In this document: one piece after another, positions 57,901 to 60,900 of the stretch
Layout: each line of letters opens with the position of its first letter
How positions within the stretch are numbered: position 1 is the stretch's first letter
Assembly (NCBI RefSeq): GCF_001677475.2
Contig: NZ_CP015229.1
Source of the DNA: Escherichia coli
GTDB taxonomy: Bacteria > Pseudomonadota > Gammaproteobacteria > Enterobacterales > Enterobacteriaceae
Strand: one strand, 5' to 3'
Length of the DNA stretch: 64,000 bases
Made by a program: the position numbers

Positions 57901-60900
57901 TTTGAATATCGGTCTTGGGCAGTGCGAAAAATGGGATGAAGCCGCCATTCGCGCCCGAGCCGATCGTCTGGCCGATCTCGCGGTTCAGGTCTGGCAAGCG
58001 CCTTCTCTTCCTGAAGAGGTATTAGCTGTTTATCGGGGTCAGCCGGAGAACAAAACCAGTTACAGCCTGAGTGATTATCCTTTCCTTGCTGATGGTTCGC
58101 ATAGCCGGGTGTTATTCGATCATCTTCGCGATGAAGTTATGCGCCTGGACGCAGGGATCACACAGGAAGTTTTAAAGCTGTATATTGCGTTTAAAGCGGA
58201 AACGAATTTTGTTGATGTTGTGCCGCAAAAAAGCCGACTGCGATTGTCGCTTAATATGCAGTTTCATGAACTGGTCGATCCGAAAGGTATTGCCAAAGAT
58301 GTGACAAATGTTGGGCGCTGGGGCAATGGTGATGTGGAAATTGGTTTCAGCGACCTCGCACAACTTCCTTACATTATGGGATTAATTCGTCAGGCATTTG
58401 AAAAACAGATGGAGAGTGCGTTGGTATAACGTGGCGAATAATACCCGGTAGCACTGGCGCTACCGGGTCAATCTATCAGGCGACTTTCTGTTTACCGGCA
58501 ATCACCCCAATAAATTCCTGCACCTGCTTTTGTTTACGTGCCGACAGCTTGCACACCTGGCGCAGTGACTGCATCAGTTCGCTCTCTTCGGGGGCGGGTG
58601 GTTGGGTGGTGAGGATAATACAGCCTTCCATCACTTTGACATCTACCGCCGTGCCAGTGGCAAAACCGGCGGCTTCCAGCCACTGACCTTTCAGGGTGAT
58701 GGCGGGAATGCGGCTGTAATCCGGGTAGCGACTCGCATAACTCACGGTTAATTGACGGTTATTTGCTGGGGAGACTTCTGCTTCGAACGGTTGTGCAATA
58801 GAATGCGTGTCAGTCATGATTACTATTCCTTTGAAATAGGGATTGTGATTAGCGGTGCGGGTGTGTTGGCGCACATCCGCACCGCGCTAAATACCTGTAT
58901 ATATCATCAGTAAATATGGGGAAAGTCCAGCTAAAAATTAATGAAAATAAGATGAAAATTAGCGTACAATATAATTTTTGGTGATGTGAATAAAGCGGCT
59001 ATTTAGCCGCTTTATTGGTTTTATGAGGGCGAGGAAATTAGTTTATCGCCGCGTCAGTGAGTGCGTCTGCAAGGTGCAGTTGGGTTTGCTGGGCGGATTG
59101 GATATGATTCTTTAATTCTTCACATAGTTTATAAAAAATATGTAGTTTACTCATTATTTTTTTTGCTTCTGAGCTAGGAGGAATAGCAACAGGACAACCT
59201 CTGAGCTGGGTTTTATTAATAGAGGCTAAATTAGTGGTTTGCTTACTTGCGTTAGCAAAATATTGTCTTGAGAATGGGCTATTCATATATGTTTCTAACC
59301 AATATGGATCAACATCTTGCCCTATATTTCGTCCTTTGAATACATGGTTTTGATTTGCTATATACCAGTCATGACACCATACTGTAGTTCTCCCGACTGT
59401 ATCCCAGTCGCCGCCTTCTGTGATCAATAAATCTCCCTTGACTACTTGATATTTTTCTTTTTCCTCAATAGGGATTTCAATCTGTTTAATTTCCGTAAGA
59501 TCAAGATATCCGCGTTGGACGTTTGCCACACGTAAATAAGGAACTTTTACCAAAGTTCTATTTGATAAATTTCTTCCTTTAGTGATACCACTTTGAATAT
59601 CAATAATATCTTCAAATAAACACCACTCCCACCCTTCCGGCAGTTCAAATGGTTTTTCCTCATCGCTAATTGGCGGCAACGGTTTTTGTTTTTTTATTTT
59701 TCCTTTTTTCACCAGTTGAGCTTTTTCCTGCGCAATTCGTTTGAGCAGTTCAGAGGCAGGTTCGTCATTCGGATCCTGCGGCACAAGTTTACCCATTACG
59801 GCCAGTTGCAGAATGGTCTGTTTTAATGCATCCACGCTGGCTTCGGTGGTAAATAGTGTGTCGAAATGCTCGCTAATACGCGCCCAGTTTTCAGCCAGTT
59901 CCTCGGCGTTTTGGCTGTCTGTAAGCGTTCCCAACAGGGTTTCAACCAGTTGCTGATGTGCGTCCAGACTGGCCAAGGATTGCTGTTCCAGTTGGTCGCA
60001 AAGGGACATGAGCTCCTGTACTTTGGATACAATACGTATTTGTTCTTGGTAAGGTGGTAAAATAACAGGGATCTCTTTTAACTTAGACGCTTTTATTCCT
60101 GTTGCGGTCATGCCTGTAGATTTGTCACTTAGTTGTGACTGGAAGGGGATCGCCAGGATTTGAATAAGCATAAAAGGGCTTATCTCTGGAGTATGCCATT
60201 GAAAACAGATAGAACGTTGAGCAAGAGCGAACTTTCCGTCTAAATCAATAATCGCTGCATTCCCCAGTGGTGCTTCAGTCGTGAATAAAATATCACCACA
60301 TTTAGGAAAGCCTCTTGTCATCCATGATATGTAATCTTCTTCAGATATGAACTCTTCTGGATTGAGATCAATATAGCCCTTTCTGATATTTTTTGCTGTT
60401 ATAAGCCTTATACCATTTTCTTTTTTATGTGGTGTTTTTCCTCGGTAATCGATGAATTTAGCTAAATTACCAAGTCTTATCCATGACCACTTTTCGGGGG
60501 TATCGATATAATATTCATTTCCATGGATATTAGTGCTTGCTGTGGTTTTCATACCATTATTGCGCGCTAATTCTTTTTTCCGTTCTTCATTACGCTTCAG
60601 CAGCTCCGACGCTGGTTCATCATTCGGATCCTGCGGCACTAGTTTACCGCGCACCGCCAGTTCCAGAATCAGCTCACGCAATTTCTTAATGCCATACAAA
60701 TCAATTTTACCGGAACTGCCGCGCCCGGCGGTGGAACGGGTTTGCAACGCCGAGGTCCAGGTTGCCATATGATCAACGATCAGCTTTTCCACACTCATCA
60801 GTTAACCTCCTTGCCAGACAGCGCAGCGCCAAGAATATCGCGCAGTTGATTACGCAGCGTCTGGATCTCCGCCTGCTGTTTTGCATACTGCGCTAACAAT

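Follow-up and report, generated by a model that had tools for sequence, protein, structure and literature searches.

The symE/SymR locus and its LexA operator, flanked by a GmrSD-like gene and hsdS, within an Escherichia coli genome's immigration control region

A short reading frame lies between a type IV restriction gene and hsdS in a 64,000-nucleotide stretch of an Escherichia coli chromosome (the window). An earlier note, made from the sequence alone, had read it as symE, a DNA-damage-inducible toxin-like gene with a LexA box upstream and the antisense RNA SymR on the opposite strand. The questions raised by this locus are whether it is the known symE/SymR module with its control elements intact, what its product does, and whether its place among restriction genes bears on its function. 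Our analysis leaves little doubt that the locus is the chromosomal symE/SymR type I toxin-antitoxin system at its normal position within the immigration control region (ICR). The locus, its regulation by LexA, SymR and Lon, and its position in the ICR have all been published and are already known. What the present analysis adds is annotation: it places the small RNA, its promoter and the operator of a divergent allele at exact coordinates.

symE and its neighbours

The identity, coordinates and intactness of all the sequence elements were observed in the window itself. The features are given below in order of position, with the strand where one was assigned.

53287-54243, rpn-like gene
54486-55898, yjiR-like gene
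56060-56239, yjiS-like gene
56336-58429, plus strand, GmrSD-like type IV restriction gene, intact, 697 aa, with the Pfam domains GmrSD_N, GmrSD_C and DUF5655
58443-58468, 10-bp hairpin (ACCCGGTAGC / GCTACCGGGT) with a loop of 6, separating the convergent stops of the GmrSD-like gene and symE
58476-58817, minus strand, symE, SOS-induced type I toxin gene, intact ORF of 342 nt including the stop codon, 113 aa
58799-58804, plus strand, -10 hexamer of symR (TAGAAT), within symE codons 5-7 and 7 nt before the SymR 5' end
58812-58888, plus strand, SymR antisense small RNA, 77 nt, two hairpins (Rfam RF01809)
58827-58830, minus strand, symE Shine-Dalgarno sequence AGGA, 9 nt 5' of the ATG and opposite SymR nt 16-19
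58893-58912, LexA operator (SOS box), 20-mer ACCTGTATATATCATCAGTA, with the core CTG-N10-CAG at 58895-58910
58896-58938, minus strand, putative symE core promoter region with A/T-rich hexamers, identical to K-12 up to 58938
58989-59016, 12-bp hairpin, placed between the stop codon of hsdS and the promoter of symE; on the plus strand it resembles a terminator, with the tail GGTTTTAT
59038-60798, minus strand, hsdS from a type I restriction-modification system of type IB (EcoAI family), flanking cassette
60798-62303, hsdM, after hsdS
from 62334, hsdR, continuing past the end of the window

The module had been placed at 58476-58910, an interval bounded exactly by the symE stop codon and the last base of the LexA core. 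The symE product matched the Pfam family SymE_toxin (PF08845) with 75.3 bits against a cut-off of 29, and the NCBIfam equivalog NF010128 with 227.7 bits against a cut-off of 132, residues 1-112 lying on profile positions 1-112 of 113. Compared with SymE of K-12, 106 of the 113 residues (94%) were identical, and the seven substitutions were conservative for the most part. All of the E. coli matches carried the symE annotation. A 132-aa frame with a GTG start in the mechanical ORF list proved to be an in-frame upstream extension, and the symE start is the ATG at 58817.

The gene order yjiR-yjiS-[type IV gene]-symE-hsdSMR agreed with the synteny of K-12, O121 and O157, and the locus is the E. coli ICR, in which variable restriction cassettes lie between framework genes near yjiR and yjiS. 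The proposed position of the module between the GmrSD-like gene and hsdS was borne out. The GmrSD-like gene, which was hit in PADLOC by Orf5 (737 bits), HEC-06 and mREase_IV, formed one intact ORF in the window, compared with two annotated pieces in the closest complete genomes (O121, O157:H7). On the other side, the homologue of the R subunit in O121 was annotated as belonging to the EcoAI/FtnUII family. The start of hsdR at an internal GTG in the ORF list had raised the suspicion of a broken gene, which was rejected; the frame was open to the end of the window and colinear with the O121 protein. In K-12, symE also adjoins hsdS on the same strand, as in the window, but the flanks differ, with a type IA hsdS upstream and mcrBC downstream in K-12 and a type IB hsdS and the GmrSD-like gene here. 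The order transposase-like rpn gene, yjiR, yjiS, GmrSD homologue, SymE, hsdS, hsdM, hsdR, in which McrBC is absent, is the same as that of the ICR variant with a GmrSD homologue described previously (PMC4437046, PMC12707154). He et al. 2015 (PMC4437046, Fig. 8) showed the ICR GmrSD homologue beside a transposase, an endoribonuclease, hsdS/M/R and mrr, with McrBC absent, and an EcoSal Plus review of 2025 (PMC12707154) listed symE symR among the toxin-antitoxin systems of the ICR and gave GmrSD in 12% of loci. Thus, the embedding of the module among restriction genes is true, but it is not peculiar to the window, being the published normal position in the ICR.

Searches of complete E. coli genomes showed a symE match in 2,872 of 5,426, and the whole arrangement of GmrSD-like gene, symE and type IB hsdS in 1,283-1,304 of them. 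In the sampled genomes, symE adjoined the hsdS of a type IA or type IB system, or the hsdR of a third type I arrangement, which was taken to be type ID. The other flank was occupied by mcrBC, the GmrSD-like gene or a DUF1998 gene, or symE was followed by yjiS directly.

The module had also been described as directly abutting hsdS. At the level of genes this holds, since hsdS and symE are neighbours of the same orientation; 220 nt separate them, including a hairpin and the symE promoter. As a statement about the sequence it does not, because 125 nt (58913-59037) and the 12-bp hairpin intervene between the operator and hsdS. This hairpin, the sequence of which was common to O121 but not to K-12, is probably the hsdS terminator on the minus strand. 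It would thereby end hsdS transcription, and symE would have its own promoter. The 10-bp hairpin between the convergent stops, which was kept in O121 and missing in K-12, is likely a terminator; it was not flagged by the terminator scan.

SymR and the LexA operator

A plus-strand stem-loop antisense to the 5' end of symE had been thought to fit SymR. The RF01809 scan of the whole window identified it as such with a full-length match (model positions 1-77 of 77) at 93.4 bits, where the gathering score is 61, and an E value of 6e-17. Two hairpins formed when the RNA was folded (-41.4 kcal/mol, z -7.27), and shuffling the sequence 200 times gave no fold of equal stability. For K-12, Kawano, Aravind and Storz (2007, PMC1891008) reported RyjC/SymR to be 77 nt long, to lie antisense to the 5' end of yjiW/symE and to have its promoter within the ORF. 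The comparison with the published RNA, which had been suggested as a check, showed the same length of 77 nt and matching ends; 67 of the 77 nt were identical to K-12, and all 77 to those of E. coli JA0266. SymR was perfectly complementary to symE over the opening 6 nt of its coding sequence, over the Shine-Dalgarno sequence and over 71 nt 5' of the ATG. Both the ATG (58815-58817) and the Shine-Dalgarno sequence thus lie on the strand opposite SymR, which is a cis antisense arrangement. The symE leader itself folded with -32.6 kcal/mol (z -4.57), and its Shine-Dalgarno sequence fell partly within the loop and partly at the loop's 3' edge in an mRNA hairpin that mirrors hairpin 1 of SymR. SymR annotation was absent from all eight RefSeq stretches examined.

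The symR promoter could be located with the help of published mutagenesis. In K-12, a silent change in symE from CATTCT to CACTCC abolished SymR (Kawano 2007, PMC1891008). This change alters positions 2 and 5 of TAGAAT, which fixes TAGAAT as the symR -10 hexamer. K-12 carries the same hexamer, which was invariant among the nine E. coli alleles compared. The symR promoter escaped the consensus promoter scan, and its -35 element must therefore be weak. The 3' end of SymR is without a U-tract. A bound LexA 5 nt downstream acting as a roadblock that makes this end was considered and is unlikely, because 90 min after mitomycin C the SymR level in K-12 was the same as before.

One pair of the Rfam structure was an A.G mismatch in the SymR of the window, and a register shift of one step restored good pairing. 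When both registers of hairpin 1 were compared over nine E. coli alleles, pairing was 88.9% and 85.5%, which is about equal, and no pair changed on both sides in either register; covariation therefore speaks neither for nor against the structure. In the SymR alignment of these nine alleles, 92-94% of the cells paired, with shuffled alignments equally good. One allele had the apex of a hairpin inverted with the stem kept.

The proposed LexA box upstream of symE was found as CTGTATATATCATCAG at 58895-58910, identical to K-12. Read on the plus strand, this core forms an imperfect palindrome (CTG-N10-CAG) whose centre is A/T-rich. Its position is 78 nt upstream of the start codon of symE (ATG at 58817, minus strand) and 7 nt past the 3' end of SymR. 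The complementarity of SymR stops 5 nt short of the 20-mer. A search for the consensus LexA 20-mer with up to three mismatches found none, the site having five mismatches to the perfect palindrome, and the motif CTGT-N9-CAG was not enriched in the window (7 observed, 4.9 expected). A weight matrix built from LexA boxes (its training sites scoring 13.4-26.8 bits) ranked the site top over the 64 kb with 15.3 bits, followed by 12.2 bits for the next; a score of 15.3 bits was attained in 16 of 100 shuffled windows. The motif statistics alone are not decisive and place the site borderline above chance in 64 kb. What raises the box above chance is that the 20-mer and the 26 bp upstream of it are exactly identical to the yjiW/symE operator of K-12. 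The 20-mer was also identical in O121. The LexA site and the SOS induction of yjiW/symE in K-12 were reported in PMC1891008, where Fernandez De Henestrosa 2000 is cited for them.

The symE promoter was likewise missed by the consensus promoter scan. Two candidate -10 hexamers, TATATA and TATACA (58896-58903), fall inside the LexA box, and a candidate -35 element, TGGACT, is located at 58924-58929. The hexamers at 58896-58903 are the only A/T-rich ones, and we infer from them a -10 element within the operator and a transcription start near 58889-58892. With such a start, SymR would span essentially the whole leader; most or all of the symE 5' leader would thus be covered by SymR.

The comparison with K-12 showed that homology extends from about 58480, at the symE stop, to 58938, forming a conserved block of about 460 bp between two variable cassettes. 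Within it, the LexA 20-mer, the 26 bp upstream of the 20-mer and the 32 bp upstream of SymR, including TAGAAT, were identical base for base. The ten substitutions among the 77 nt of SymR relative to K-12 fell in hairpin 1, except for that at nt 44 (hairpin 2), and they also turn the symE Shine-Dalgarno sequence from the GGAG of K-12 into AGGA. No match at 100% identity to the 146-bp control region occurred among complete E. coli genomes, and the highest identity was 98.6%. The allele of the window looks like a mosaic, with SymR of the JA0266 type and an operator of the K-12 type. Over this 3 kb, the best E. coli DNA match was 96%, against 99% elsewhere in the window; the uxu and leuX regions were 98.9% and 99.0% identical to complete E. 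coli genomes, respectively. The conserved block has sharp edges where it meets the interchangeable defence cassettes, and these edges could be joints of recombination. In addition, natural operator variants, with CTGT in the window and K-12 and CTGG or CTGGAC in other strains, could set different SOS thresholds.

Regulation and activity of SymE

The module of the window and symE (yjiW)/SymR (RyjC) of K-12 (PMC1891008) share the gene, the length and ends of the RNA, the symR -10 hexamer, the LexA box and the core promoter. LexA control, repression by SymR, turnover by Lon and toxicity are taken from K-12 experiments on this near-identical sequence. LexA was shown to repress symE transcription in K-12 and mitomycin C to induce it (PMC1891008). 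In the symR -10 mutant, symE mRNA rose about 3-fold, and the rise in SymE protein exceeded 7-fold. SymR was very stable, in a ratio of about 10:1 over symE mRNA, and its level was unaffected by mitomycin C (PMC1891008). SymE was degraded by Lon, and the controls by LexA, SymR and Lon were additive (PMC1891008).

We infer that the module is expressed and that the same circuit operates in the strain of the window. On this model, symE would be fired on the minus strand from its own promoter, which the LexA box would overlap, and LexA would shut it off in undamaged cells. DNA damage would lead to RecA-stimulated cleavage of LexA and then to symE transcription. SymR, presumably made constitutively from the opposite strand by the promoter inside symE codons 5-7, would be stable and in about 10-fold excess, and by pairing with the leader, Shine-Dalgarno sequence and start codon it would block translation and lower the mRNA modestly. 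A leader that mirrors SymR in its fold and holds the Shine-Dalgarno sequence in and at the edge of a hairpin loop would favour the initiation of pairing between loops. SymE that escapes would be removed by Lon, and SymE, with its reported AbrB/MazE fold, would arrest growth when overproduced.

The tisB/IstR-1, dinQ/AgrB and hokE/SokE systems resemble symE/SymR in joining a LexA-repressed toxin with a constitutive small RNA that blocks translation. Their toxins are small hydrophobic membrane peptides of about 27-50 aa. The RNAs of tisB and dinQ are encoded divergently beside the toxin gene, and hokE/SokE is cis-antisense. Compared with these toxins, SymE is a soluble protein of 113 aa with a reported AbrB fold, and SymR is a true cis-antisense RNA over the start codon.

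The swapped-hairpin DNA-binding fold of the AbrB/MazE type was ascribed to SymE by Kawano 2007 (PMC1891008) and by an AlphaFold-based analysis in PMC11894785. SymE has this fold in common with MazE/AbrB-fold antitoxins and transition-state regulators (PMC1891008, PMC11894785); unlike those antitoxins, it is the toxic partner and is neutralised by RNA.

The biochemical activity of SymE is disputed between RNA cleavage (2007) and DNA binding with condensation of the nucleoid (2022). According to the summary of Thompson et al. 2022 given in PMC11894785, over-expression of SymE gave no RNA cleavage, and SymE bound DNA independently of sequence and compacted the nucleoid to an extreme degree. In the original model of 2007 (PMC1891008), SymE is a ribosome-associated endoribonuclease that degrades RNA, possibly damaged RNA, in the SOS response, and the name "endoribonuclease SymE" in RefSeq and NCBIfam follows this reading. 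We regard this model as unlikely, given that DNA compaction and no RNA cleavage were seen in the work of 2022, as summarised in that source, and that the fold is that of the DNA-binding AbrB/MazE proteins. A DNA binder that condenses the nucleoid is thus favoured over an RNase, a choice that the sequence itself cannot decide. The word "toxin-like" in the earlier note was a fair label for SymE; the activity behind the label has been revised, on the summarised results, from endoribonuclease to DNA-binding nucleoid condenser. The term "endoribonuclease" is still attached to symE in annotation, and newer work disputes the name.

Bearing of the position on function

The position of the module raises the possibility that it is functionally tied to its restriction neighbours, as an addiction or stabilising element, as an abortive-infection system against phages or as an SOS-triggered brake on self-restriction. 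The block of about 460 bp stays constant between flanks that swap type IA, IB or ID systems on one side and mcrBC, the GmrSD-like gene, the DUF1998 gene or nothing on the other, and symE-like genes recur by restriction-modification systems and in defence hotspots of other bacteria. Deletion of hsdSMR in CFT073 altered the expression of yjiW, which the authors of that work read as a polar effect; this may reflect merely read-through or the deletion scar. None of the PADLOC defence models matched SymE, symE was present in only about half of the complete E. coli genomes, and no experiment is known to connect SymE with restriction or phage. Co-location in a recombination hotspot suffices for the pattern, and a functional tie is accordingly quite improbable.

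A narrower form of this idea is that the symE-SymR-LexA block (about 58480-58938) is retained as a fixed anchor because it cooperates with the swapping restriction cassettes or stabilises them. Co-location and some literature remarks are all that speaks for this reading, which we find very doubtful. If it were true, breaks made in the host chromosome by the type I or type IV enzymes next door might be met by SymE, which, induced through the SOS response, would condense the nucleoid; alternatively, the block might stabilise the island through addiction or abortive infection. The natural CTGT and CTGG operator alleles would then set the ease with which symE fires.

That the locus is decaying or silent in the strain of the window, or that its LexA box and hairpins are functionless relics, is scarcely credible, for although the ICR is a hotspot of gene decay in which O157 and O121 have a split GmrSD-like gene and IS1 cuts away symE in strain LST200A, and although the closest E. 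coli match to this allele reaches just 96%, the symE ORF is intact and full length on the equivalog model, its seven amino acid changes relative to K-12 are mostly conservative, and both promoters and the operator are the same as the functional ones of K-12.

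The symE/SymR control region

The locus of the SOS-induced toxin gene symE included the following elements.
58476-58817, minus strand: symE
58812-58888, plus strand: SymR, the 77-nt antisense sRNA of symE
58895-58910: core of the LexA box
Comparison with the sequences of JA0266 (L005) and K-12 (L001) showed that the region spanning 58780-58938 looked mosaic. The SymR of the window was identical to that of JA0266, a strain whose symE adjoined hsdR from another type I arrangement, presumed to be type ID. The LexA box was the K-12 (type IA) version, and the flanks were type IB. Alignment of nine E. 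coli alleles of the control region (A2, columns 116-131; window versus L003-L008) revealed that this LexA box was polymorphic within the species. The window, K-12 and O121 carried CTGTATAT..CAG, five of the nine sampled alleles carried CTGGATAT..CAG and one carried CTGGACAT..CAG. The SOS thresholds of symE could therefore differ between alleles. In E. coli LST200A (L008, 2288-3165), the symE coding sequence was lost to an IS1 insertion; SymR with the final stretch of its promoter region, and the LexA box, were still present beside hsdS. This remnant is an orphan antitoxin RNA gene.

The SymR hairpin and its 3′ end

In E. coli FDAARGOS_1265 (L004, around 3367-3372), the apex of SymR hairpin 2 was inverted from TTGGCG to CGCCAA (A2 columns 87-92). 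The inverted apex was the exact reverse complement and the stem was unbroken; the change is a hairpin “flip” and not a point mutation. The 3′ end of SymR was not a canonical intrinsic terminator because hairpin 2 was not followed by a U-tract (GCGCUAAAUACC; window 58884-58895). About 100 nt beyond SymR, a plus-strand hairpin with a GGTTTTAT tail (58989-59025) could halt read-through. This hairpin was absent from K-12 and formed part of the type IB cassette.

The GmrSD-like gene

On the other side of symE lay the following gene.
56336-58429, plus strand: GmrSD-like gene, 697 aa, with GmrSD_N, GmrSD_C and a C-terminal DUF5655 (counterparts at L002 3907-6000 and L006 904-2996)
It was a single intact ORF in the window, whereas the annotations of O121 and O157:H7, the nearest complete E. 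coli genomes, split it into two pieces, one of them a pseudogene in O121. The 3-kb region here showed only ~96% identity to any complete E. coli genome, compared with ~99% for the rest of the window.

Other features of the window

The interval separating the immigration control region from the uxu genes included two further genes.
37796-43036, minus strand: inverse autotransporter, 1,746 aa, with an IAT_beta domain and many Big_1/Invasin_D3 repeats
45602-47575, minus strand: pentapeptide-repeat protein, 657 aa

A tRNA gene was followed by a small island (together 8256-12618).
8256-8340: tRNA-Leu(CAA)
9018-11066, plus strand: 682-aa ORF, with no Pfam match
11689-12618, minus strand: HNH_2 protein, 309 aa
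The pair formed by the 682-aa ORF and the HNH_2 protein was present in only 332 of 5,426 genomes at ≥80% coverage. E. coli genomes name one gene under this match “phosphorothioated DNA-binding restriction endonuclease” and a second one “HNH endonuclease”; either name could belong to the 309-aa ORF.

One further RNA match was found.
2048-2242, plus strand: Ysr276 (“Yersinia sRNA 276”, antisense class), full-length Rfam match, 184.6 bits versus 100
It lay antisense inside an M17 leucyl aminopeptidase (pepA-like) gene (ORF 1289-2800, minus strand), and its score may merely mirror conservation of the coding sequence.
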